A DNA stretch of 64,000 bases from Alphaproteobacteria bacterium (GCA_947473325.1 CANJEJ010000001.1:15255-79254), one strand, 5' to 3'; counted from the stretch's first letter, positions 2,208 to 64,000 are shown. The notes: generated by a model not told the origin, from the letters alone. Numbers and translations are program-made.

Positions 2208-2480
2208 TCAGGCCTTCTTGGGCGTCATGCTGCCGCCGGTGATGCGTTCGCACATGCCGACGGGGACATAGACCCAGGCCGCCGGGTCGGCATCGCGCCG
2301 TGCCGTGCCGCCGCAGGAATTGTTGCCGGCCGAGGCACAGTCATTCTTGCCGGCCTTCGAGACGCCGTAGCATTTCTCGGCCTTGAATTCGGGGGCCTTT
2401 GCCGGCGCCTGCGCGCTGGCGGCAGCGGGGATGGCGATAGCGGCAGCGAGGGCCGAAGCGACGAGGAAGCGGGTATTCAT
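2208..2480 (-). CDS. DUF2282-type secreted Cys-rich peptide (candidate RiPP precursor, BufA-like)
   Basis: 90 aa. Signal peptide MNTRFLVASALAAAIAIPAAASA, then EKCYGVSKAGKNDCASAGNNSCGG...VPVGMCE with 4 Cys. Lies 22 nt upstream of the DUF692 gene on the same strand. Confidence 0.8.
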   Translation of the reverse strand: MNTRFLVASALAAAIAIPAAASAQAPAKAPEFKAEKCYGVSKAGKNDCASAGNNSCGGTARRDADPAAWVYVPVGMCERITGGSMTPKKA

Positions 2481-2539
2481 GGCGTAAGCTCCAGTTCAGG
2501 GTTCCGAAGGCCGCGCCGCAGCGGGCCTTCGCATCCCTG

Positions 2540-2565
2540 TTCTGTCGCGCCCGCCGCCGGGTTAC
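2540..2565 (-). promoter_or_regulatory. candidate ECF (SigF-type) promoter upstream of the DUF2282 gene
   Basis: The minus strand reads GTAACC-N16-AGAA about 60 nt upstream of the ATG at 2480. From memory, Caulobacter SigF-dependent promoters are GTAACC-N16-CGAA. Confidence 0.3.
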
Positions 2566-2598
2566 TGTCCGTCCGCAAATTTTTTCACCGGCGATGCC

Positions 2599-3174
2599 TT
2601 GACCGATTCCGCGCCCTTTGCCGAGACTCCGCAGGACCAGCAATGGCGCCGGCTGATGGCTGCTGCGCAGAATGGCGATCAGGTGGCCTATGCGGCCCTG
2701 CTGCGCGATCTCCTCCCCTATTTGCGCGCCATGGCCCGGCGGCGGTTCCGCCAGGCCGAAGAAGCGGAAGATGCCGTGCAGGACATCCTGCTGACGCTGC
2801 ACACCGTGCGGCACAGCTATGACCCGGCGCGGCCGTTCCGGCCGTGGATCGTCACCATCGCGCGGCGGCGCATCGCCGATCGCATGGTCAGGCTGGGCCG
2901 CCGCGCCGCCAATGAAATGCTGTCGGCGCTGGATGACGATGAAACCTTTTCGGTGCCCGTGACGAACAGCGATATGGAGACGGCCGTGCAGGCGCGCGAG
3001 GCCGTCGCGGCCGTGGCGGATCTGCCGCCCGGCCAGCGTCAGGCGTTCGAGTTGCTGAAGGTGCAGGGTCTGTCGCTGAACGAGGCGTCAGCGGCGACGG
3101 GCCTGTCAGTTACCGCGTTGAAGGTTGCGACCCACCGGGCCGTGCTGGCGCTGCGCCGGCGGCTGGGCAATTGA
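2599..3174 (+). CDS. ECF-type RNA polymerase sigma factor (SigF-like)
   Basis: 191 aa, TTG start. Region 2 (DAVQDILLTLHTVRHSYD, FRPWIVTIARRRIAD) and region 4 HTH (QRQAFELLKVQGLSLNEASAATGLSVTALKVATHRA). Confidence 0.9.
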   Translation: MTDSAPFAETPQDQQWRRLMAAAQNGDQVAYAALLRDLLPYLRAMARRRFRQAEEAEDAVQDILLTLHTVRHSYDPARPFRPWIVTIARRRIADRMVRLGRRAANEMLSALDDDETFSVPVTNSDMETAVQAREAVAAVADLPPGQRQAFELLKVQGLSLNEASAATGLSVTALKVATHRAVLALRRRLGN

Positions 3175-52054: not shown

Positions 52055-52975
52055 GTGACCATCCCGCCCATCGCCTTCGCCTATCTGCTCGCGCTCGCGC
52101 TAATGTGGGGCTCGTCCTATGCCTTCATCAAGCTGATGGTGGAGACGATCCCTCCGCTGATCGGCACGACGATGCGCATGGGGCTGGCCACACTGATCCT
52201 GGGCGTCGTGTTGGTTGTTATTGGCGGGCGGCTGCCTCGCGACCGGGCGACCGTGCTGAAGCTGTTCCTCATCGGCACCATCGGCAGCGCCGTGCCCTTC
52301 ACGCTGATCGCCTTCGCCACGGAGCGAATTCCGGCGACTTCGGCCGCCATCCTGATGGGTTCGGCGCCCGCCATCACCATGCTGCTCGCGCATTTCACCA
52401 CCCGCGACGACCGGCTGTCGGTGAACAAGCTGGCGGGCCTCCTCATCGGTTTTCTTGGCATCGCGGTGCTGTTCGGTCCGGCGGCGCTGTCCGGCATCGG
52501 CGACAGCCTGTGGGGCATGCTGGCGGTGATTGCCGGGGCCACGCTCTATGCCTGCACCAACGTGCTGGCGCGCACGCTGCGCGGCGTGACGCCGGTCGCA
52601 GCCGGGACCGCCGCCTTTGTTGGTGCGACGCTGGTGCTGGTGCCGGCGGCCTTCATTTTCGAAGACCCGGTCGGACTTGCGCGGGCCGGCAACATTTCCA
52701 CCGCGTCCTGGGTGGCGCTCGCCTTTCTCACGATCTTCTCGTCGGCGCTGGCGAATGTGATCTTCTATCGCCTGGTGGCGCTGGCGGGCTCCACCTTCAG
52801 TTCCTTCAACAACTACCTGTCGCCACCCATCGGCGTGATTTGGGGCGTGGCACTGCTGGGCGAAACCGTCAGCTGGAACGCCGCCGCTGCCCTCGTGCTG
52901 ATCCTGACGGGCATCGCCACGGCAAATTTCGGCTCCTTGCGCGCGATGCTGCGGCCGGCGCGCGTCAGTCCTTGA
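52055..52975 (+). CDS. DMT-superfamily (EamA) transporter
   Basis: 306 aa, GTG start; 10 TM helices. Confidence 0.8.
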   Translation: MTIPPIAFAYLLALALMWGSSYAFIKLMVETIPPLIGTTMRMGLATLILGVVLVVIGGRLPRDRATVLKLFLIGTIGSAVPFTLIAFATERIPATSAAILMGSAPAITMLLAHFTTRDDRLSVNKLAGLLIGFLGIAVLFGPAALSGIGDSLWGMLAVIAGATLYACTNVLARTLRGVTPVAAGTAAFVGATLVLVPAAFIFEDPVGLARAGNISTASWVALAFLTIFSSALANVIFYRLVALAGSTFSSFNNYLSPPIGVIWGVALLGETVSWNAAAALVLILTGIATANFGSLRAMLRPARVSP

Positions 52976-53777
52976 AGCCCAGCACGTCGTTCATGCCGTA
53001 AAGGCCGGCGGGCTTGCCCCGCGCCCACAGCGCGGCGCGCACGGCGCCGGACGAGAACAGGGAACGGTCCTGTGCCTTGTGGGTAAGCTCGATGCGTTCG
53101 GAGTCGCTCGCGAACATCACGGTGTGATCGCCGACCACGCTGCCGCCGCGCAGCGTCGCGAAGCCGATGTCGCCCGCCTTGCGCGCGCCGGTGATGCCGT
53201 CGCGGGCGCGGACTGCGACCTCGTCGAGCTTCACCTTGCGGCCCGCCGCAGCGGCGCGGCCGAGCGCGAGCGCGGTCCCGGATGGCGCATCCACCTTGTG
53301 CTTGTGGTGCATCTCCAGCACCTCGATGTCGAAGTCGGGGCCGAGCAGCGCGGCGACCTGCTTCGTCACCTGCAGCAGCACGTTGACGCCGACGCTCATG
53401 TTGGCGGCATAGACGATGGTGGCGGTCACGGCGGCCATGCGCAGTGCCTGTTCCTGCTCGGGCTTCAGGCCGGTGGTGCCGGCGATCAGGATCTTGCGCC
53501 GGCCGGCGGCCAGCGCCGCGTGCCTCACGGTCGCCTCCGGCGCGGTGAAGTCGATTACCGCGTCGCAGGCATCGAAGAGCGCCGCGGGGTCATAGAACAC
53601 GCGCGCGCCCGTCGCTTTCAGGCCCACCAGCGCGGCGGCGTCCTGGCCGATGGCGGCATGGCCCGGCCGCTCCGTGCCGCCGCCGATGGCGCAGCCCGGC
53701 GTGGCGGCAATCTGCTTCAGGAGAGTCTGGCCCATGCGGCCGGCACAGCCGGCGACACCGATGCGGAGGTCCGCCAT
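52965..53777 (-). CDS. dapB: 4-hydroxy-tetrahydrodipicolinate reductase
   Basis: 270 aa. RIGVAGCAGRMG, EMHHKHKVDAPSGTA. Confidence 0.96.
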   Translation of the reverse strand: MADLRIGVAGCAGRMGQTLLKQIAATPGCAIGGGTERPGHAAIGQDAAALVGLKATGARVFYDPAALFDACDAVIDFTAPEATVRHAALAAGRRKILIAGTTGLKPEQEQALRMAAVTATIVYAANMSVGVNVLLQVTKQVAALLGPDFDIEVLEMHHKHKVDAPSGTALALGRAAAAGRKVKLDEVAVRARDGITGARKAGDIGFATLRGGSVVGDHTVMFASDSERIELTHKAQDRSLFSSGAVRAALWARGKPAGLYGMNDVLGFKD

Positions 53778-53873
53778 GTCAAAAATTTCTGACTCGAAAA
53801 GGGAACGGGAACAGGGGCAGATTTAACACAAGCGCCCTGCGCACTCACCCACAACCCGAATCAGGCAGTCCCC

Positions 53874-54524
53874 ATGATCGATCTCTATACCGGCCGAACG
53901 CCCAACGGCATCAAGGTCTCCATCGCGCTCGAGGAGATGGGGCTGCCCTACACCGTCTATGCCCTCGACCTCATGGCCAACGAGCAGAAGCTGCCGGAAT
54001 TCCTCGCCATCAACCCGAATGGGCGCATTCCGGCCATCGTCGACCGCGACGAAGGCAATTTCCCGGTCTTCGAATCTGGCGCCTGCCTGATCTATCTCGC
54101 TGAAAAGACCGGCAAGCTGTTGCCGGCGGACCGGAAGGGCCGCAGCCGGGTATTCCAGTGGATCATGTTCCAGATGGGCGGCATCGGCCCGATGCAGGGC
54201 CAGGCCGGCTGGTTCAAGCGCAATGCCCCCGACAACCAGGTCGGGATTGATCGTTATATGAACGAAACGAAGCGGCTATACGGCGTTCTCGATGCCCGGC
54301 TGGCCGAATCGCCGTTCCTGGCCGGCGCCGACTACTCCATTGCCGACATAGCCAATTACGGCTGGGTCTGGGCCAGCGATTTCTCGGGCATCGACCTCGC
54401 GCCCTTCCCGCATGTGAAGACGTGGAAGGACGGTATTGCCGCCCGGGCCGCCGTGCAAAAGGGTCAGGCGATCCCAACGGATGAGCAGAAAACCAAGAAC
54501 AAGGCGCCCTTCGTCAAGAAGTAG
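53874..54524 (+). CDS. Glutathione S-transferase (YfcG/YghU-like)
   Basis: 216 aa. [37 protein letters not shown]. Confidence 0.85.
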
Positions 54525-54594
54525 GGCGTCCAGCTCTTTGATTCATAACCGATAATTTGGGTTCGTTCCGGCAAACCGCTTTTTGGAAGGCACC

Positions 54595-55326
54595 ATGGCG
54601 AACACGGGAAAGGTCGCAGTCGTCACCGGCTCCAACCGCGGTATCGGGCGGGACGTCGTCCGTCAGCTGGCCGCCAAAGGCTATCGTATGGTCCTGACGG
54701 CCCGGGATGCCGCCGATGGCGAGAAAGCCGCCGCTGAACTGCGTAAAGCCGGGGGCGACATCCGGGCGCATGATCTCGACGTCCAAAGTGATGCGAGCTG
54801 CCGGGCGCTTGCGGCGTGGGTGAAGGCCGAATATGGCCAGGTCGATGTGCTGGTCAACAACGCCGGCGTGCTGCTGGAGCGTGTCTATGGCGCGGATGGC
54901 CGCCCGATTTCCGAAGACGATGGGCTCGACGTCGATATCGGCGTGGTGTCGCGCATCCTCGACACCAACACGCTGGGCGCGCTCCGCATGATCCAGGCCC
55001 TGGCGCCGGTGATGAGCAAAGGCAGCCGGATCATTAACCTGTCGTCCCGGATGGGACAGTTCGGCATGCTCGGTCCGAACATGGTCGGCTACCGCATGTC
55101 GAAGACGGCGCTGAACAGCCTGACGGCCTGCCTTGCGCCGGCGCTCGAAAAGAAGGGTATTGGCATCTTCGCCATGTGCCCGGGCTGGGTGCGCACGGAC
55201 ATGGGGTCGCCGGCTGCGGCGAAGAGCGTCGATCAAGGGGCCGACACGGCGGTCTGGCTGGCGTCGGAAGCCCCGAATCCGAAGAGCGGCGGCTTCTATA
55301 CCGAACGCAAGGAAATCCCGTGGTAA
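54595..55326 (+). CDS. Short-chain dehydrogenase/reductase (carbonyl-reductase-like)
   Basis: ATG 54595 after GGAAGG; VAVVTGSNRGIGR, NNAG, Y-x3-K (YRMSKTAL). Confidence 0.88.
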   Translation: MANTGKVAVVTGSNRGIGRDVVRQLAAKGYRMVLTARDAADGEKAAAELRKAGGDIRAHDLDVQSDASCRALAAWVKAEYGQVDVLVNNAGVLLERVYGADGRPISEDDGLDVDIGVVSRILDTNTLGALRMIQALAPVMSKGSRIINLSSRMGQFGMLGPNMVGYRMSKTALNSLTACLAPALEKKGIGIFAMCPGWVRTDMGSPAAAKSVDQGADTAVWLASEAPNPKSGGFYTERKEIPW

Positions 55327-55410
55327 CTGGCCGCGCCCCTATCGGGCGGCATGCCGGATTGTGTAGACTTATCCCCATACGCCAACTCGTTCGCCAAAGG
55401 ATCCATCGCG

Positions 55411-56592
55411 ATGGCCTCCACTGACATCCCGGCATTCAAGTTCGACATTTCCGGCCTTGGCCGGCACGCCGTTATGGCCGAGCTGAACCATGAGGACACG
55501 TCGCGTCTCAACTACAGCATGGCCTTCATGCGCCACCTGCGCGAGCAGGTCGAGCCGAAGAACAAGACCGTGTTCGACTCCCGCGTCGAGCCCTCCTTCG
55601 AGAAGAAGAATGGCCGCAAGCCGAAGGACCGCCACGAAGTGCGCAAGGCGATGCTGGAAGACAACGCCTACCAGTGGTGGGCCTGCCTGCGCCGCCATCA
55701 GCAGGAACTCGGCAGCTCCAACAAGTGGCCGATCATCGAGCGCCAGGCGGCGGAACTGATCGCCAAGGCGAAGGTGAAGAATCCGAAATACGGCTCGCTG
55801 AAGCTCGACCCCACGGTGCAGACGCCGCGTTACCAGGCCGGCTTCGACATGCACTGGATGGCCGGCAGCTATCACGGCGAAGGCGGGTCTGACGATGTGC
55901 TGCCCGGCGCGATGTACGACCTTGGCGGCCTCTACATGGGGTCCGGCGGCAAGTTCGGTAAATGGAACGACGGCCCGGGCTACTCGGTCATCCATTGGCT
56001 GAAGACGCAGTATCCGGATTTCAAGCCGAAGAAGATTCTCGACGAAGGCTGCACCGTCGGCCAGTCGACCGGCCCCTATTGCTTCGGCTGGCCCGGCGTC
56101 GAGGTGCACGGCATCGACTACGCCGCGCCGATCCTGCGCTATGCCCATGCGCGCGCCCAGGCGCTGAAGCTGCCGATCCACTTCAAGCAGGCGCTGGCGG
56201 AAGACACCGGCTATGCCGACAACAGCTTTGACGTTGTCGTGTCGTCGATGTTCCTGCACGAGACCTCGCACAAGGCCGTGCATGCCATCGTCAAGGAAGC
56301 ACATCGCATCCTGAAGCCCGGCGGCATCATGATCCATGTCGAACAGCCGCCCTTCAAGACGATGAAGACAGTGTGGCAGCAGTTCGTGATGGACTGGGAC
56401 ACGCACAACAACAACGAGCCCTTCTGGGGTCCGATGCATGACATGGATCTCGAAGACGTCGCGGTGAAGGGCGGCTTCAAGAAGCAGGACGTGCTGCAGA
56501 CCTACGCGCCCTTCGTCACGCCGCTGGATGACGGCCGTGCCGTGCCGGCGGAAAGGGGCGAGTGGTTCTTCTTCACGGCGCGGAAGCGCTAA
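55411..56592 (+). CDS. unassigned N-terminal module + class I SAM-dependent methyltransferase, tandem paralogue 1
   Basis: Track ORF 55351..56592 trimmed to MASTDIPAFKF by alignment with the paralogues. MTase motifs ILDEGCTVG, VHGIDYA, FDVVVSSMFLHET, LKPGGIMIHVEQ. Confidence 0.85.
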   Translation: MASTDIPAFKFDISGLGRHAVMAELNHEDTSRLNYSMAFMRHLREQVEPKNKTVFDSRVEPSFEKKNGRKPKDRHEVRKAMLEDNAYQWWACLRRHQQELGSSNKWPIIERQAAELIAKAKVKNPKYGSLKLDPTVQTPRYQAGFDMHWMAGSYHGEGGSDDVLPGAMYDLGGLYMGSGGKFGKWNDGPGYSVIHWLKTQYPDFKPKKILDEGCTVGQSTGPYCFGWPGVEVHGIDYAAPILRYAHARAQALKLPIHFKQALAEDTGYADNSFDVVVSSMFLHETSHKAVHAIVKEAHRILKPGGIMIHVEQPPFKTMKTVWQQFVMDWDTHNNNEPFWGPMHDMDLEDVAVKGGFKKQDVLQTYAPFVTPLDDGRAVPAERGEWFFFTARKR

Positions 56593-56613
56593 GGGTTCAG
56601 GGGCGCGCGCGGC

Positions 56614-57795
56614 ATGCCGATTCAGGACATCCGCACCCAGCACGCTCACTGGTCGGGAATCGGCCGTCACGCGGTGATGGCCGAAACCAACCAGGAGGAA
56701 ACCGCGCGCCTCAACCACATGATGGCGCTGTATCGCCATCTGCGGGAAAACGTCTATGCGGGCAACAAGCTCGCCTATGACAAGCGGGTCGAGCCCGACT
56801 TCGTGAAACGCCACGGCCGCAAGCCGAAGGACCGCCACGAAATCCGCGAGGCGATGCTCGCCGATCCTTTCTATCGCCTGTGGGCGCATCTGCGCCGCGA
56901 CACGCAGGAAACGGTGTGGATGGCGCGCCAGCCGGTGGTCGAACGGCAGCGCACGGCGCTGGCGAAGAAGGCGCATGTGGCGAAGCCGAAATACGGCTCG
57001 CTGCACCTCGACCCGGACCTGAAGGCACCACGCTATCAAAGCGCCTTCGACATGCATTGGATGCCTGGCGGCTACCACGCCGACGAAGGCGCCGGTGACG
57101 TAGCGCAGGCGGCGATCTATGACCTTGGCAGCCTCTATGTTTCGACCGGCGGCAAGATGGGTCCGTGGAACGACGGTCCGGCGCAATCGGTCATTCGCTG
57201 GCTGAAAGACAAGTATCCCGCCTTCCAGCCGAAGAAACTTCTCGACGAAGGCTGCACGGTCGGCCACTCCACCGTTGCCTATTGCGGTGCCTGGCCTGGC
57301 GTCGAAGTGCACGGCCTCGATTTCTCGGCACCGGTCGTCCGCTATGCGCACGCGCGCGCCGAATCGCTGGGTCGCCCGGTGCACTATCATCAGGCGCTCG
57401 CGGAAGACACGAAATTCCCGGACGCGAGCTTCGATCTCGTCCTCTCGTCGATGTTCCTGCACGAGACGTCCCGCAAGGCGGTCTATGCGATCGCCGCGGA
57501 AGCACGGCGCATCCTGAAGCCTGGCGGCCTGATGCTGCATGTCGAGCAGCCGCAGTTCCACCAGCTGCCGACGCCCTGGTCGCAGTTCGAGAACGACTGG
57601 GACACCCACAACAACAACGAGCCCTTCTGGGGCCCGATGCACGACATGGATCTGGAAGACGTGGCCATGAAAGCCGGCTTCCGGAAACAGGACATCTTCC
57701 AGGAAAACGCCCCTTTCATCATGCCCCGGCCGGACGGTCGGCTGGAGGTTGCCAAGGGTGGCTACTGGTTCTTCTTCGGCGCCTGGAAACGCTAG
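56614..57795 (+). CDS. same family, tandem paralogue 2
   Basis: 393 aa. LLDEGCTVG, SSMFLHET, LKPGGLMLHVEQ, DWDTHNNNEPFWGPMHDMD. Lies 21 nt after paralogue 1. Confidence 0.88.
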   Translation: MPIQDIRTQHAHWSGIGRHAVMAETNQEETARLNHMMALYRHLRENVYAGNKLAYDKRVEPDFVKRHGRKPKDRHEIREAMLADPFYRLWAHLRRDTQETVWMARQPVVERQRTALAKKAHVAKPKYGSLHLDPDLKAPRYQSAFDMHWMPGGYHADEGAGDVAQAAIYDLGSLYVSTGGKMGPWNDGPAQSVIRWLKDKYPAFQPKKLLDEGCTVGHSTVAYCGAWPGVEVHGLDFSAPVVRYAHARAESLGRPVHYHQALAEDTKFPDASFDLVLSSMFLHETSRKAVYAIAAEARRILKPGGLMLHVEQPQFHQLPTPWSQFENDWDTHNNNEPFWGPMHDMDLEDVAMKAGFRKQDIFQENAPFIMPRPDGRLEVAKGGYWFFFGAWKR

Positions 57796-57855
57796 GCGCG
57801 CGATACACGAGGGGGATTCCAGCCCCCATATAGACAGGGATCAAGGAGAGCACGC

Positions 57856-59082
57856 ATGGCACAGGCCCAGAACGAAAACCTCGGCTTCAGCGACAGCGCC
57901 GGCAACCGGCCGAAGGAAGCGACGTGGCGCGGCCGCGGCACCCACGCGGCGAGCGCCGACACCAACCATGACGAAGCCTCGCGCATGGACTTCGTGATGA
58001 CGCTGTTCCGCCACATCGGCCGCAATGTCGCTCCTGGCCACCAGACGGTGTTCGACAAGAAGGTGGAGCCCGACTTCGTGAAGAAGGCCGGGCGCAAGCC
58101 GAAGGACCGCCACGAAGTGCGCAAGGCGATGCTCGAGAATCCATACTTCCAGTACTGGAGCCACCTGCGTCTCTACAGCCAGGAAGCGTCCTATTACGAG
58201 CGCAGCCAGATCGTTGACCGCCAGCTCGATGCGCTGATCGACAAGGCGAAGAAGGTTCCGGCCGGCAGGAAGGGCAAGAACGACAAGGGCTCGCTGACAC
58301 TGAACCCCGCTCTCGTCATTCCGCCCTATCAGGCGCATTTCGACATGCATTGGATGCCGGGCAGCTACTTCACCGAGTTCACCAAGGACGACGTCGCCGG
58401 CGGCGCGATGTATGACACCGGCGGGCTCTACATCACCTCGTCCGGTCACCTCGGCGCCTACAACGATGGCGCCGGCTATGCCATCGCGCGCTACATCCAG
58501 TCGAAGTTCCCGACCTTCAAGCCGAAGCGCATTCTCGACGAAGGCTGCACCACCGGCTCGAACACGGTGCCGCTGAAGGACGCATGGCCGCAGGCGGAGG
58601 TGCACGCCATCGACATCGGTGCGCCGGTGCTGCGAACCGCGCATGCGCGGTCGGAAGCGCTCGGCCTCGCCGTCCACTATTCGCAGCAGGATGCCGAGCA
58701 CACCAATTTCAAGACGGGCAGCTTCGACCTCATCAGCTCGTCGATGTTCCTGCATGAGACGGCGCGCAAGGCCGTCCACAACATCGTCAAGGAATGCTAC
58801 CGGCTGCTGAGCCCCGGCGGCATCATGGTGCATGTCGAGCAGCCGCCGTTCTCCTGGGCGAAGTCGCCCTTCGACCAGATGACGCGCGACTGGGACACGC
58901 ACAACAACAACGAGCCATTCTGGGGCGCCATGCATGACATGGACCTCGAGAAGGTCGCGCTCGAAGCGGGCTTCAAGAAGGAAAACATCACGCTCGAGAT
59001 GGTGCCGCTGGTGACTCCGACCGAGAGCGACAAATACGCGCTCGGCAAGGGTGCCTGGTTCGTCTTCGTGGCGCGCAAGTAA
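57856..59082 (+). CDS. same family, tandem paralogue 3
   Basis: 408 aa. AAGGAG RBS; ILDEGCTTG, SSMFLHET, LSPGGIMVHVEQ, DWDTHNNNEPFWGAMHDMD. Confidence 0.88.
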   Translation: MAQAQNENLGFSDSAGNRPKEATWRGRGTHAASADTNHDEASRMDFVMTLFRHIGRNVAPGHQTVFDKKVEPDFVKKAGRKPKDRHEVRKAMLENPYFQYWSHLRLYSQEASYYERSQIVDRQLDALIDKAKKVPAGRKGKNDKGSLTLNPALVIPPYQAHFDMHWMPGSYFTEFTKDDVAGGAMYDTGGLYITSSGHLGAYNDGAGYAIARYIQSKFPTFKPKRILDEGCTTGSNTVPLKDAWPQAEVHAIDIGAPVLRTAHARSEALGLAVHYSQQDAEHTNFKTGSFDLISSSMFLHETARKAVHNIVKECYRLLSPGGIMVHVEQPPFSWAKSPFDQMTRDWDTHNNNEPFWGAMHDMDLEKVALEAGFKKENITLEMVPLVTPTESDKYALGKGAWFVFVARK

Positions 59083-59108
59083 CCGACACACTGGAAGGAA
59101 CAAGAACG

Positions 59109-60284
59109 ATGGCCAACAGTCTCGGCGTTGCCACCTGGTCCAGCTTCGGCCGTCATGGTCTGTCGCCACAGACAGATCATGACGAGGCGAGCCGGATGGA
59201 ATTCACCATCAACCTGTTCCGCCACTTGAACTGGCAGCAGCCGGCGCACAAGGAGATCTACGACAAGAAGGTCGAGCCCGGCTTCAAGCGCGAGAACAAG
59301 CGCGCGCCAAAGAACCGGCACGAAGTGCGCGACGCCATGCTGAAGGACTCCACCTTCCAGGTCTGGTCGCACCTGCGCGTCTATGCCCAGGAAAACCTTT
59401 TCGAGAATGCGCGCTTGTCCGTTGACCGCCAGCTCGACACGCTGATCGGAAAGGCGAAGGAGAAGAAGAAGGGCAAGACCAAGGGCTCGCTCAAGCTCGA
59501 CCCGACATTCGAGGTGCCGCGCTACCAGAAGCATCTCGACATGCACTGGATGCCGGGCAGCTACTTCACCGAGTTCGTCGAGAAGGACGACGTCGCCGTC
59601 GGTGCCATCTATGACTTTGGCGGCATCTATGTTCTGACCAACGGCATGCTCGGCCAGTACAACGACGGTGCCGGCCATGCGGTGGTGCGCTATCTGCGCG
59701 AAAAGTTCCCCGGCTGGACGCCGAAATCTGTGCTCGACCTCGGCTGCACCGTCGGCCACAACACCTTGCCGTTCAAGCGCGCCTGGCCGAAGGCTGACGT
59801 GCACGCCATCGACATCGGCGCGCCGACCCTGCGCTATGCGCATGCCCGCGCCGAAGACATGGGCTATGCGATCCATTTCTCGCAGCAGAATGCCGAGGCG
59901 ACGAACTTCAAGGACAACAGCTTCGACCTCGTCGTCTCGACCATGTTCCTGCACGAGACGTCGCATTCGGCCGTCTACAACATCGTCAAGGAAAACCGCC
60001 GCATCCTGAAACCCGGCGGGCTCATGATTCATGTCGAACAGCCGCCATTCTCCTGGGCACAGTCGCCTTTCGACGCTTTCACGCGGGACTGGGACACGCA
60101 CAACAACCAGGAGCCGTTCTGGGGCCGCATGCACGACATGGATCCCGAACAGGTGGCGCTGAAGGCGGGATTCAAGAAGCAGAACATCTTCCAGGAAATG
60201 GCGCCGCTGGTGACGCCGATCCCGGGCGACGACTACAACCTCGCGCCCTTCGGTGCTTGGTTCGTCTTCGGTGCGCGCAAGTAG
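59109..60284 (+). CDS. same family, tandem paralogue 4
   Basis: 391 aa. VLDLGCTVG, STMFLHET, LKPGGLMIHVEQ, DWDTHNNQEPFWGRMHDMD. Confidence 0.88.
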   Translation: MANSLGVATWSSFGRHGLSPQTDHDEASRMEFTINLFRHLNWQQPAHKEIYDKKVEPGFKRENKRAPKNRHEVRDAMLKDSTFQVWSHLRVYAQENLFENARLSVDRQLDTLIGKAKEKKKGKTKGSLKLDPTFEVPRYQKHLDMHWMPGSYFTEFVEKDDVAVGAIYDFGGIYVLTNGMLGQYNDGAGHAVVRYLREKFPGWTPKSVLDLGCTVGHNTLPFKRAWPKADVHAIDIGAPTLRYAHARAEDMGYAIHFSQQNAEATNFKDNSFDLVVSTMFLHETSHSAVYNIVKENRRILKPGGLMIHVEQPPFSWAQSPFDAFTRDWDTHNNQEPFWGRMHDMDPEQVALKAGFKKQNIFQEMAPLVTPIPGDDYNLAPFGAWFVFGARK

Positions 60285-60311
60285 GCGTGTTGCCGCAGCT
60301 TCCGGCTGCAA

Positions 60312-60344
60312 GGCCCCGTCCGCAAGGACGGGGCCTTTGCATTT
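60312..60344 (+). terminator. Rho-independent terminator after methyltransferase paralogue 4
   Basis: GGCCCCGTCC-GCAA-GGACGGGGCC perfect 10-bp stem followed by TTTGCATTT. Confidence 0.7.
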
Positions 60345-60487
60345 CAGGGCCAGCACCGTGCTAATCTACGCGCCTGCTACCAGGGGGCAGATCGCGCGCA
60401 AGGTTCTGGATTTGCACCCTTTTTGGAATCCGCGCGACCAGACTTCAGAACAAGGCCGGCGCTGTGAACGGCCCGAGGGAGACGACA

Positions 60488-62059
60488 ATGACCACTTATT
60501 CGCGAAAACACCGCTTCGGTATGGCGGCAACCGGTACGGTGGCGGCGCTTGCCGCGCTCGCCCTTGCGTTGCCGGCCCTTGCCGCCAACCCGCCCGACAC
60601 GCTGCGTGTCGGCACCAACTCCAAGTCGCCGGCGCGCGGCAATCCGTTCGCCGCCGGTTTCAGCGTGCCCAACGCCTATTTCTGGGTGCCGATCTTCGAC
60701 TCGCTGACCCGGGTGAATAACAAGGGCCAGACGCTACCCATGCTGGCGGAAAGCTGGAGTGTCGGCGACGACAAGCTGACCTGGACCTTCGTGGTCAAGA
60801 AGAACGTTGTCTATTCCAACGGCGAACCGTTCAATGCGGCGGCCGTGGCGGCAACCTTCGACTACCTGCTGAAGGACGACAAGGGCAAGACCACCAACGC
60901 GGCGAGCGTGCTGCGCGGCGTCAAGGAAGTGACGGCCAGCGGCGACGACAAGGTCATCGTCAAGACCGAGAAGCCCGACCCGCTGCTCGCCGGTACGCTG
61001 GCGACGATCAGCATCGTCGGCCCCAAGGCCTGGCGCGAGATGGGCGTGGAAGCCTTCACCCAGATGCCGGTTGGCACCGGGCCGTGGAAGGTCGAGAAAT
61101 GGACCGACACGGAAACCTCGCTGGTCCTGAATCCGACGTCCTATCGGCCGGGCAAGATTCCGAAGATGACCATCACGGAAATCCCGGACGTGGTGGCACG
61201 CGGACAGGCGGTTCTGTCGGAACAGATCGACATCGCGACCAACCTCGGTCCCGATGACGTGACGCGTATTCGCGCCGCCGGCCATCAGGCCGACATCGCG
61301 ACGTCGCCCAACATCCAGTCGATCGCGCTGTTCACCGAAGACTTCTCGCCCAACAAGAAGTGGGGCGACAAGGGCACGCCCTTCAGGGACAAACGCGTAC
61401 GCCAGGCAATGAACTACGCCATCGACCGCGACTCGATCATCAAGAATCTGGTCAACGGCATCACCAAGCCGGCAAGCCAGCCGGCCAACCCGGCGACCTT
61501 CGGCTACAACCCGGATGTGAAGCCCTATCCCTACGATCCGGCAAAGGCCAAGGCGTTGCTGACCGAAGCAGGCTATCCGAACGGCTTCAAGTTCGTGTCG
61601 GAAGTGCTGCAGGGCTTCTCGCCCAACGACAAGGAAATCTGGACCCAGGTGTCAGAGTCGGTGGGCAAGCTCGGCGTGCAGATGGAATTGCGGCCGGTTC
61701 CCTTCTCCGACTGGCTGAAGAAATATCTGGGCGGCACCTGGGAAGGCGAATCGATGACGCTCGCGCTGCTCGTCGAGCCGCATATGGACGCGATCCGTCC
61801 TTTCCAGAACTACTCCTGCCTGTTCGCCAAGGCCTTCACCTGCATCCCCGAGCACATGCCGCTGATCGAGGCGGCTTCGCAGGAAATGGATCCGGTGAAG
61901 CGCGAGAAGATGCTGAAGGACCTGATGAAGGTGATGCATGACGACGCGCTGTCCATCGCGATCCAGGAAAACGTGGAAATCGCGGGCCTGAACAAGCGGG
62001 TCAGGGGCTTCACCAACTGGAACAAGATCTTCCTCTACGAAAACGTCACCTTCCAGTAG
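60488..62059 (+). CDS. ABC transporter substrate-binding protein, family 5 (peptide/nickel/opine type)
   Basis: ATG 60488 after GGGAG. Signal peptide ...ALALPALAANPPD. Family-5 SBP-like throughout (RQAMNYAIDRDSI, YPYDPAKAKALLTEAGYPNGF). Confidence 0.88.
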   Translation: MTTYSRKHRFGMAATGTVAALAALALALPALAANPPDTLRVGTNSKSPARGNPFAAGFSVPNAYFWVPIFDSLTRVNNKGQTLPMLAESWSVGDDKLTWTFVVKKNVVYSNGEPFNAAAVAATFDYLLKDDKGKTTNAASVLRGVKEVTASGDDKVIVKTEKPDPLLAGTLATISIVGPKAWREMGVEAFTQMPVGTGPWKVEKWTDTETSLVLNPTSYRPGKIPKMTITEIPDVVARGQAVLSEQIDIATNLGPDDVTRIRAAGHQADIATSPNIQSIALFTEDFSPNKKWGDKGTPFRDKRVRQAMNYAIDRDSIIKNLVNGITKPASQPANPATFGYNPDVKPYPYDPAKAKALLTEAGYPNGFKFVSEVLQGFSPNDKEIWTQVSESVGKLGVQMELRPVPFSDWLKKYLGGTWEGESMTLALLVEPHMDAIRPFQNYSCLFAKAFTCIPEHMPLIEAASQEMDPVKREKMLKDLMKVMHDDALSIAIQENVEIAGLNKRVRGFTNWNKIFLYENVTFQ

Positions 62060-62074
62060 AACAGTTGTATCCTG

Positions 62075-62116
62075 AACCCCGCCGCCGTCGCACAGATGGC
62101 GGCGGGGTTTTCTTTT
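62075..62116 (+). terminator. Rho-independent terminator/attenuator between the SBP and oxidoreductase genes
   Basis: AACCCCGCCGCC-N11-GGCGGCGGGGTT perfect 12-bp stem followed by TTCTTTT. The oxidoreductase RBS (GGAGGG) starts immediately after. Confidence 0.65.
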
Positions 62117-62127
62117 GGAGGGACATC

Positions 62128-64000
62128 ATGGCGGCGGCCTTTCCCAACCTGTTCTCGCCCATGCGCATCGGCTCGGTCGAACTGCGCAACCGCCTGTTCG
62201 TGCCGCCGCATGGCATCACTTTTCCGCCCGGTCATGGCGGTGCGATCGATCGGGTCATCGACTATCACGTCGAACGGGCCAAGGGCGGCGTCGGGCTGGT
62301 CGTGATGTCGAACTACGTCTGGCCGGCATCATGGGAACGGATGGGCGACTGGGGCGGCACCTTGCCGCGGACGCCGCTCGGCGGCCTTGATCTTGTCAGC
62401 AACGATGCGCTGGTGCCGCATTACACCCGCATGGCCAAGGGTATTCACGCCGAAGGGGCGCGTTTCTTCGTCCAGCTCAACTCCGGCGGGCGACAGGGCG
62501 GCGGGCCGGGCTTGAACTCCTTCAAGATTCCGCTCTGGGCGCCATCGGCCATTCCCTGCCCGGAGACGCGCGAAATTCCCAAGGCGATGGAAATCGAGGA
62601 CATCGAGGAATATGTCGCCGCCTTTGTGCAGGGCGCCACCAACGCGCGCAAGGCGGGCGCGGATGGCGTGGAACTGTTCGCGGCGCAGGGCTACCTGCTG
62701 TCGGAGTTCCTGTCCCCCCATGCAAATATCCGCACCGATCGCTATGGCGGTTCGCTGGAGAACCGCATGCGCTTCGTGGTCGAGTCGCTGCAGGCCATTC
62801 GTCGCGCGACGGGCGATGATTTCGTCATCGGCATCCGCATGAATGGCGACGACTACACGCCCGGTGGTCTCACGCTGCCCGATGCGCAGCAGATCGCCAC
62901 GCGCCTGCGGCGGGACGGACTGGTCGACTACATCAATGTCAGCGGCATGACCTATTTCTCCTGGCCGGGCTGGATCGCCGAGGCCAGCCAGCCCCCGGGC
63001 ATGTTCGCGCATTTGTCGGAAGGCGTGCGTCGCGTCGTGCCCGGCCTGCCGGTTGCGGTCGTCAGCCGCGTCGGCGACCCGCATCTCGCGGAACGCATCA
63101 TCGCGTCGGGTCAGGCCGATCTGGTAGGCATGGCGCGCGCGCTGATTTCCGATCCCGAACTGCCGGCCAAGGCGGCGCGCGGCGATCTCGACGATATCCG
63201 CCAATGCACCTATGGCAACAATTGCGTCATGGGGCTGATCGGCGGCAAGGGCGTGTCCTGCACGCACAACCCGGCGGTGGGCCATGAACGGCAGCTTGGC
63301 ATCGGCACGCTGAAGCCGACAGACAAGCCGCGGCATGTCGTGGTTGTCGGCGGCGGTCCGGCGGGGATGGCGGCGGCGCGAGCGGCGGCCGCGCGCGGCC
63401 ACCGCGTCACGATGCTGGAGAAATCCGACGCACTGGGGGGCCAGAACCGGATGACCGCACAGGTGGCCAGCCGCGCACGCTATGCCGAGACGACGCGCTG
63501 GTACACCCAGGCGCTCGACCGGCTGGGAGTCACCCGCCGGTTTCACGTCGATGCCGATGCCGACCGCGTGATGGCGGAACACCCCGATGCCATCGTTGTC
63601 GCCACCGGGTCGCGGCCGCGGCAGGACGGCTATTCCAGCCATCGTCCCGATGTCAGCCGGTTGCCCGGCTCCGACCGCGACCATGTCTTCACGGTGTGGG
63701 ATGTCTTCGCGCGCAGCAACAGGCTGGGCCAGCGAATTGTCCTGATCGATGAAGACCCGCACCTCTCGGCGATGCTGACGGCGGAACATCTGGCCGATCT
63801 GGGCAGGCAGGTTGTCGTCGTCACGCCGGCGATCCATGCCGCGCGATCCCTCGGCCAGGCCTTCGTTCCGGAGCTGCTGCGGCGCGTGCGGCCCAAGGGC
63901 GTCGTGATCCGGACGGACAGGATCGTCACCCGGATCGATGGCGAAGCTGTCCAGTTGGAAGACCGCTACACGGGCGAAACAGAGGCCGTTCCCGCCGACA
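62128..64000 (+). CDS. OYE-like FMN oxidoreductase fused to an Fe-S/FAD-NAD(P) domain (2,4-dienoyl-CoA reductase / amine-demethylase-type); partial, runs off window end
   Basis: Not in the ORF track because no stop is reached. My own translation from ATG 62128 gives MAAAFPNLFSPMRIGSVELRNRLFVPPHG...GADGVELFAAQGYLLSEFLSPHANIRTDRYGGSLENR...DIRQCTYGNNCV...VSCTHNP...VVVVGGGPAGMAAA. The frame stays open to nt 64000. Confidence 0.85.
   Translation, partial: MAAAFPNLFSPMRIGSVELRNRLFVPPHGITFPPGHGGAIDRVIDYHVERAKGGVGLVVMSNYVWPASWERMGDWGGTLPRTPLGGLDLVSNDALVPHYTRMAKGIHAEGARFFVQLNSGGRQGGGPGLNSFKIPLWAPSAIPCPETREIPKAMEIEDIEEYVAAFVQGATNARKAGADGVELFAAQGYLLSEFLSPHANIRTDRYGGSLENRMRFVVESLQAIRRATGDDFVIGIRMNGDDYTPGGLTLPDAQQIATRLRRDGLVDYINVSGMTYFSWPGWIAEASQPPGMFAHLSEGVRRVVPGLPVAVVSRVGDPHLAERIIASGQADLVGMARALISDPELPAKAARGDLDDIRQCTYGNNCVMGLIGGKGVSCTHNPAVGHERQLGIGTLKPTDKPRHVVVVGGGPAGMAAARAAAARGHRVTMLEKSDALGGQNRMTAQVASRARYAETTRWYTQALDRLGVTRRFHVDADADRVMAEHPDAIVVATGSRPRQDGYSSHRPDVSRLPGSDRDHVFTVWDVFARSNRLGQRIVLIDEDPHLSAMLTAEHLADLGRQVVVVTPAIHAARSLGQAFVPELLRRVRPKGVVIRTDRIVTRIDGEAVQLEDRYTGETEAVPAD

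Follow-up and report, generated by a model that had tools for sequence, protein, structure and literature searches.

The closest described relatives of the genes reported here are class I S-adenosylmethionine (SAM)-dependent methyltransferases, namely the phosphoethanolamine N-methyltransferases (PEAMT/PMT), the Methyltransf_11/25-type enzymes and the COMT/ASMT-like enzymes (PF00891). In our study, a stretch of 64,000 nucleotides from an Alphaproteobacteria bacterium (GCA_947473325.1, CANJEJ010000001.1:15255-79254), called the window at its full length, was found to contain four tandem methyltransferase genes, named P1 to P4, in the array region 55411-60284. Our preferred reading, held with a little better than even confidence, is that P1-P4 are four catalytically intact paralogues of one uncharacterised class I SAM-methyltransferase family, which most likely act on small molecules and each act independently.

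The PEAMT/PMT enzymes (PDB 5wp4, 5wp5, 4kri, and 3uj6) were the best PDB matches of P1-P4 in the sequence-profile searches (E 1e-15 to 1e-14). They are small-molecule methyltransferases with an anionic substrate, which was counted as a likeness to the family. However, the match covered only the core (residues ~199-322), the Foldseek TM-score to the query was at most 0.38, and PEAMTs are devoid of the helical N-terminal module of ~200 residues and of the DWDTHNN loop. The identity of P1-P4 as phosphoethanolamine N-methyltransferases was rejected, as only the core was aligned and the similarity did not extend over the full domain with its phosphobase-binding lid.

The Methyltransf_11/25-type enzymes (LahSB, 6uak; RebM, 3bus; UbiE/MenG; BioC; CpaM) resemble P1-P4 in the Rossmann core, in an acidic post-I residue, in a strand-4 motif of the LHH type and, apart from its middle Gly, in motif I, whereas they are ~200-310 residues long and contain no N-terminal module. 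When the full P1-P4 proteins were scanned with NCBIfam, nothing beyond the generic core was matched, and every equivalog (CpaM, BioC, UbiE/MenG, ArsM, TehB, and others) was several-fold below its cut-off. UbiE/MenG was rejected at 37-43 bits against 158 (TIGR01934) and less than 36 bits against 216-378 (PRK00216 models), BioC malonyl-ACP O-methyltransferase at 38-59 bits against 185 (TIGR02072), and CpaM at 47-55 bits against 180 in the core only (NF043040). ArsM, considered on account of an ArsR gene at one related locus (L008) that is not in the window, was rejected at 25-26 bits against 263 (PRK11873). The methanethiol S-methyltransferase MddH is a protein of 24.24 kDa (PMC11445057), and this identity was also rejected, P1-P4 (391-408 residues) being roughly twice its size. 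No corrinoid protein was present among the scanned neighbours (GST, SDR, SBP5, and OYE-type flavoprotein).

The COMT/ASMT-like enzymes (2r3s; DsyB, 7wdq; SgvM, 8ftr; MfnG, 7ux6) resemble P1-P4 in having a helical N-terminal domain followed by a C-terminal Rossmann methyltransferase. Their N-terminal domain caps the active site or dimerises, their length is 330-360 residues, and they were among the top Foldseek matches. However, the full-length root-mean-square deviation was 15-19 Å with a TM-score to the query of 0.40-0.44, and the N-terminal module of P1-P4 was without a sequence relative. Membership was rejected, with PF00891 scoring 17.3-17.6 bits against a gathering threshold of 22.3 and the module giving no Pfam match at E<=10. 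The resemblance is read as an analogy of plan, not as membership.

Fold and family of P1-P4

All four proteins contained a methyltransferase core at residues ~205-315, where PF08241, PF13649, PF13847, PF08242, and PF13489 (Methyltransf_11, _25, _31, _12, and _23, respectively) were above the Pfam gathering thresholds; the matches were confined to the core region. P1 was modelled with AlphaFold2 from an alignment of 67 sequences (pLDDT 91.6, pTM 0.92); the model contained a helical N-terminal module (helices 27-120), followed by a linker, a Rossmann core from residue 208 in which strands and helices alternate, and a loop of low confidence at 331-340, the place of the DWDTHNN(N/Q)EPFWG block. 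Foldseek searches of this model against the PDB gave more than 1,000 methyltransferase matches, through the core only; the best PDB sequence matches of the core (PEAMT, LahSB, and RebM) were small-molecule enzymes. No full-length structural analogue of P1 was found in the PDB by Foldseek, the TM-score to the query never exceeding 0.44. The domain models and the predicted fold place P1-P4 in the class I Rossmann-fold methyltransferase superfamily, and methyl-transfer activity is probable.

The N-terminal ~200 residues had no Pfam match even at E<=10 when searched alone, and no Foldseek relative in the PDB. Profiles built from four sequences, from 67 sequences, and from the N-terminus alone were searched against the PDB sequences; only the core was matched, and the N-terminal profile gave two chance matches (E ~0.6). 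A first-pass annotation of this DNA had described a class I methyltransferase fold behind an unassigned N-terminal module and had not recognised the family as any characterised enzyme, and all these points were upheld by the Pfam, NCBIfam, PDB, and Foldseek results. The helical module may form the acceptor pocket together with the conserved and flexible DWDTHNN(N/Q)EPFWG loop.

A protein search returned 841 relatives, and every named one was called only a 'class I SAM-dependent methyltransferase'. With the profile of the N-terminal module, 608 representative clusters were matched out of 1.84 billion proteins, 360 of them at E<=1e-10; the family comprises ~600 clusters at 50% identity. The module was always found at the N-terminus of proteins of ~370-410 residues or of obvious fragments, and thus exists only in this architecture. 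Almost all members come from uncultured aquatic bacteria, mainly freshwater and marine Alphaproteobacteria; the other carriers are Algiphilus, Binatota, and Acidimicrobiales, with Pseudomaricurvus hydrocarbonicus JCM 30134 (locus L037) as the one cultured strain. No characterised member was found in the literature on novel marine methyltransferase families or on methyltransferases beside hydantoinase, caprolactamase, isochorismatase, or DUF1302/DUF1329 genes. The family is widespread but uncharacterised and combines a class I methyltransferase core with a novel N-terminal module.

Thirty-four alignment columns were invariant over 67 members, and all of them were kept in P1-P4. Among them are three positions of motif I (G213, C214, and G217), E264, H283-E284-T285, and H309, as well as D328-W329...N334.E336-P-F-W339 in the C-terminal loop. 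In motif I, which reads G-C-T-x-G (D-E-G-C-T-V-G), Thr replaces the usual middle Gly; D236, the acidic residue after strand 2, E264, and the FLHET motif of strand 4 were conserved. The ratio of nonsynonymous to synonymous substitution (dN/dS), measured against the orthologues in L028, was 0.097 for P4, 0.076 for P3, and 0.079 for the solute-binding protein gene downstream. All four copies look functional, because the invariant residues are kept and dN/dS is low in P3 and P4.

Array structure and conservation among relatives

The genes P1-P4 (Table 1) were separated by intergenic gaps of 21, 60, and 26 nucleotides, and Shine-Dalgarno sequences of the AAGGA type were present ahead of P1, P3, and P4. 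The open reading frame (ORF) calls agreed with the first-pass annotation in strand, length, and spacing. The P1 start at 55411 was favoured over an upstream ATG at 55351, the orthologue in L054 having been called as 393 aa. No convincing terminator was found inside the array by a consensus terminator scan; with the short gaps this makes co-transcription plausible, in agreement with the single operon suggested at first. The 60-nt spacer between P2 and P3 contained a small hairpin (GGGGG-ATTCCAG-CCCCC, 57817-57833) without a T-run. Three minus-strand ORFs rich in Arg, Ala, and Gly overlap the array (757 aa, 55369-57642; 442 aa, 57841-59169; 519 aa, 58797-60356). They are taken as high-GC shadow ORFs and not as genes, on the grounds of the plus-strand frames only, which have homologues and, in P3 and P4, are also under purifying selection.

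The identity was 62% between P1 and P2, 63% between P3 and P4, and 51-53% in the cross pairs. In tblastn the four genes matched one another at E 1e-122 to 1e-168, far beyond chance, and no fifth family copy was found in the 64-kb window. The grouping into the pairs P1/P2 and P3/P4, proposed at first pass, is borne out by the identities and the tree. The motifs listed there were present in the four-sequence alignment, but with one-residue deviations in P3 or P4: P4 contained LDLGCTVG and STMFLHET, and P3 contained LSPGG and NHDEASRM.

The arrangement of the copies was surveyed in 137 sources of the family including the window (136 loci, numbered with an L). A same-strand run of four copies was found only in the window and in L054/L055, and a run of three only in L013. 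When at least 1.5 kb was required on either side, 109 copies remained; of these, 15 had a same-strand adjacent copy, and all 15 were in the window, L054/L055, or L013. L054/L055, from a 95%-identical relative, contained dapB-GST-SDR, the four methyltransferase genes, and SBP5-OYE-GST-CBS, collinear with the window at 93% nucleotide identity. L028 (~87% nucleotide identity) contained P3-P4-SBP5-GST, and its alignment skips exactly the OYE gene. The P3 orthologue of L028, a fragment, was 93% identical and its P4 orthologue 91%; a further P4 orthologue (77%) was found in L025.

In more distant relatives the dapB-(GST)-SDR frame is kept and leads to one P1-type copy, behind which lies a convergent copy of another clade. 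A single P1-type copy was found at this syntenic site in L001-L008 and L056; those of L001-L007 and L056 were P1 orthologues of 64-68% identity. The convergent second member, found in L001-L011 and L056 (e.g., L056:11812-12993, minus strand), belonged to a separate old clade with 39-46% identity to P1-P4; a CBS-domain gene lay between it and the P1-type copy, and ADH-DnaJ-DnaK came after. L008 read SDR-ArsR-methyltransferase-Spondin_N-SBP5-OYE, with one copy where the window has four. Its ArsR/HTH_20-family regulator (L008:9065-9376) lay directly upstream of the single P1/P2-type gene, where the window has only the 84-nt spacer between the SDR gene and P1.

L013 (7521-11128) contained an independent tandem array of three P3-like copies, 57-62% identical to P3 and flanked by genes for a VAO-type flavoprotein, CoA-transferase III, a molybdopterin oxidoreductase, and a deacetylase-like hydrolase. 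It came from the Lake Tanganyika metagenome-assembled genome (MAG) VGES, in which the syntenic-site copy (L008), this array, and the P4 orthologue of L025 lay on separate contigs. In the neighbour-joining tree at least four old clades were found, with 4-5 paralogues at separate loci in each freshwater MAG; over the related genomes the number was 4-6. P1 and P4 were each matched in other MAGs by separate orthologues, and these lay at different loci. Single-copy loci were found in Algiphilus, Pseudomaricurvus, Binatota, and Acidimicrobiales. In MAG JAYQJC, a pilon-polished assembly, a family copy (L019:1270-2317) and dapB (L004:8306-9117) were each split in two frames, probably by assembly indels and not as pseudogenes.

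The duplications are ancient, the close placing of the four genes is lineage-specific, and the array is not a conserved machine of several components, because the clades in the tree are old, the copies are dispersed in relatives, and among the sources surveyed runs occur only in the window, L054/L055, and L013. The first-pass annotation had suggested that the four genes are one system, a set of successive methylations or a hetero-oligomer. This is weakly supported, given the dispersed paralogues, the single-copy genomes, the rarity of runs, and the catalytic completeness of all four copies. It had counted related genomes with a single copy and no conserved neighbours as evidence against its reading; our findings came near to this, but the related genomes were multi-copy with the copies dispersed.

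One form of that idea is a single pathway, in which P1-P4 would methylate one substrate, or intermediates that follow one another, in successive steps (e.g., exhaustive N-methylation) with the solute-binding protein and the flavoprotein as partners. The same strand, the short gaps, the lack of a convincing internal terminator, and the intactness of all four copies are consistent with it, as are the conservation of the array with SBP5 and OYE in L054/L055 and the presence of both genes after the single copy in L008. However, in related MAGs the orthologues of P1 and those of P3/P4 have separate loci and different neighbours, most family-bearing genomes are without the array, and the OYE gene is absent from L028 though P3-P4-SBP is kept. 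Known exhaustive N-methylations (EgtD, PEAMT) usually need one or two enzymes, which also speaks against four. We regard a single pathway as unlikely.

Under the preferred reading of independent paralogues, the family would have expanded long ago in an aquatic alphaproteobacterial lineage, to 4-6 paralogues per genome normally at separate loci, and the four would have come to lie side by side in the species-level lineage of the window. P1 would be the copy resident at the dapB-GST-SDR site and P2 would have arisen from it long ago by tandem duplication, whereas P3 and P4, of a second clade with orthologues elsewhere in relatives, would have been placed beside them by juxtaposition.

Neighbouring genes and downstream signals

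The array sits in a conserved chromosomal frame next to dapB. SDR orthologues with 53-57% identity were found just ahead of the P1-type gene in L001, L003, L004, and L006-L008. Farther upstream, a DJ-1/PfpI gene was present between EamA and dapB in L054 (5941-7544) and not in the window (52055-52975). The EamA gene was ~76% identical in nucleotides to that of L054, against 91-93% in the flanks, which points to a local replacement or a recombination patch.

The array had been described at first as closed by a strong terminator. A hairpin after P4 was indeed found, and the 76-nt stretch around it (60285-60360) folds at -44.1 kcal/mol (shuffle z = -4.9). But its tail (UGCAUUUC) is weak, it was not called as a terminator by the consensus scan, and the canonical intrinsic terminator comes only after the solute-binding protein gene. 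The P4 hairpin is possibly leaky and the transcript may run on into that gene, because the U tail of the hairpin is weak and the canonical terminator lies at 62074-62110. No Rfam structured RNA (riboswitch or leader) was found in 53000-64000 at E<=1.

The solute-binding protein gene probably starts at the ATG at 60488, preceded by GGGAG 7 nt upstream and consistent with orthologues of 523 aa, and not at the GTG at 60464 of the mechanical ORF; the spacer after P4 is then ~203 nt. Its orthologues were 93% identical in L028 and 70% in L008. Among the NCBIfam models the OYE-type gene came closest to the mycofactocin-system FadH/OYE oxidoreductase 2, with 534 bits where the cut-off is 793. This gene was present in the window, in L054/L055 (L054:16718-18745), and in L008, and precisely missing in L028 (L028:3522-3594), where the solute-binding protein gene is directly followed by the GST gene that in L054 comes after OYE. 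The OYE gene is a presence/absence polymorphism, a variable neighbour and not an obligate partner. The neighbours named at first pass (GST and SDR upstream, solute-binding protein and flavoprotein downstream) have the identities described there; the link of the family genes to the last two is kept in L008 and L054, but the flavoprotein gene is missing from L028.

Table 1. Positions of the array genes, their neighbours and related features (window coordinates unless a locus is given).
Feature	Position	Strand	Remarks
Nu-class-like GST	53874-54524	+	conserved syntenic frame; orthologues upstream of the P1-type copy in L006-L008 and L054-L056
SDR oxidoreductase	54583-55326	+	adjoins P1, 84-nt gap
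P1	55411-56592	+	393 aa; clade C; probable resident copy at the dapB-GST-SDR site; ORF with methyltransferase core 207-312
P2	56614-57795	+	393 aa; clade C; probable tandem duplicate of P1 type; near the base of the P1 clade in the tree
P3	57856-59082	+	408 aa; clade D
P4	59109-60284	+	391 aa; clade D
GC-rich hairpin after P4	60309-60336, with tail to 60344	+	AAGGCCCCGTCC-GCAA-GGACGGGGCCTT, 12-bp stem; possible partial terminator
SBP_bac_5, family-5 solute-binding protein	60488-62059	+	523 aa; Pfam 2e-67
Canonical intrinsic terminator	62074-62110	+	after the solute-binding protein gene; 16-bp stem, 11 GC pairs, then T-run
OYE-type FMN/[4Fe-4S]/FAD oxidoreductase	62128-64000, runs past the window end	+	Oxidored_FMN and Pyr_redox_2
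Small helical protein, other loci	L053:11175-11504, L051:11568-11930, L049:11184-11540, L047:9612-9944, L036:3836-4165		
Small helical protein, other loci (continued)	L037:11239-11502, L043:9647-9955, L022/L023/L040 at ~2270-2600		

The neighbours of family members elsewhere were identified with Pfam and NCBIfam and counted after de-replication into 54 methyltransferase groups. SDR genes were found near 17 of the 54 groups, followed by a small helical protein without a family match (13 groups, always immediately adjacent), SBP5, OYE-type flavoprotein, and caprolactamase-like Hydantoinase A (7 groups each), VAO-type flavoprotein (6 groups), and caprolactamase-like Hydantoinase B (5 groups). The SBP5 and OYE counts overstate independence, as several methyltransferase copies at one locus were counted as separate groups. 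Individual loci also contained deacetylase-like and isochorismatase-like hydrolases, amidase, aconitase, PrpD, ICL-like enzymes, and CoA-transferases, as well as DUF1302, DUF1329, BNR, and MMPL uptake genes. Such neighbourhoods suggest that organic acids, amides, and lactams are taken up and broken down, and do not resemble those of secondary-metabolite biosynthesis.

The small helical protein is 110-121 aa long with the motif KGERPxFFxDPxxDxLLxxxMALAGEVSVLRxRLDTxERL, and it had no match in Pfam or NCBIfam. Its carriers are Gammaproteobacteria, Binatota, Acidimicrobiales, and marine Rhodospirillaceae; no homologue was found in the window or in the P1-P4 clades. It may be a partner, substrate, or regulator of the methyltransferase. 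Its immediate adjacency in 13 of the 54 groups, across four phyla, would suit a role of the family other than on small molecules, either in protein or RNA methylation or in a non-methylating, SAM-dependent or regulatory function, with the small protein as the target or partner in the other clades. The non-canonical motif I would also suit such a role, as would the low number of clade-discriminating positions (4). However, the window copies and their clades are without the small protein, the best sequence and fold matches are small-molecule enzymes, and the neighbourhood is made up of metabolic enzymes and transporters rather than of genes for translation or regulation. We judge a role outside small-molecule methylation improbable.

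Proposed function and its alternatives

Some methyltransferases pair a catalytic with a non-catalytic subunit, and by analogy P1-P4 might form a mixed complex. Tandem paralogues that are co-expressed often interact, and the subunits could associate through their helical N-terminal modules, in the manner of the plant-type O-methyltransferases among the Foldseek matches. However, all four proteins keep every family-invariant residue and none is like a degenerate scaffold subunit; single-copy genomes also exist, and the paralogues are dispersed in relatives. A hetero-oligomer is in our estimate very improbable. A defence or epigenetic system of several DNA or RNA methylases is effectively refuted, its sole support being the only PADLOC matches, weak ones to mad2 (35-51 bits, Rossmann core, ~110-185 residues of a 492-position profile). 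The alignment of the four sequences shows no (D/N/S)PP(Y/F) motif, the domain searches gave no target-recognition domain, the neighbours in the window and in L054 include neither nucleases nor helicases nor any other defence gene, and the genes lie in a conserved chromosomal frame next to dapB.

The reading of P1-P4 as independent small-molecule methyltransferases accounts for their intact invariant residues, their dispersal, and their metabolic neighbours, and several observations weigh against it. The four genes are tightly spaced and the whole array is kept at 93% nucleotide identity in L054/L055, which would also fit a co-operating set. Arrays are also harder to detect where contigs are short, as many of the metagenomic ones are. 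SAM binding is probable, although Thr occupies the position of the canonical middle Gly in motif I. The positions constant within each clade but differing between P1/P2-type and P3/P4-type proteins number only four, all conservative changes, so that the evidence for distinct substrate specificities is thin. The neighbourhoods are heterogeneous, and 'catabolic' describes a theme and not a defined pathway.

P1-P4 are probably co-transcribed, possibly with read-through of a leaky hairpin into the solute-binding protein gene. Each enzyme would most likely work alone or as a homo-oligomer, and the imported organic compounds that they methylate would be related but not the same. A more specific proposal, which we hold with little confidence, is that the family is a new enzyme class that serves catabolism and not biosynthesis, for example by transient methyl-ester masking of carboxylates on imported dissolved organic compounds of the polycarboxylate or amide type. 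By analogy with the logic of BioC and BioH, the masked compound would be processed by aconitase-, PrpD-, or ICL-like enzymes, CoA-transferases, and lactamase-like enzymes, and later demethylated by the co-located alpha/beta-hydrolases or deacetylase-like hydrolases. Multi-paralogue sets would then widen the substrate range, and in other clades the enzyme would form a two-component unit with the small helical partner. Methyltransferases are rarely part of catabolism.

What has been found is at present a subfamily of enzymes that lacks annotation, rather than a new type of system. For comparative biochemistry, the array provides four variants, diverged but intact, in one probable operon, and identification of their substrates could reveal an unrecognised step in the bacterial turnover of dissolved organic matter.

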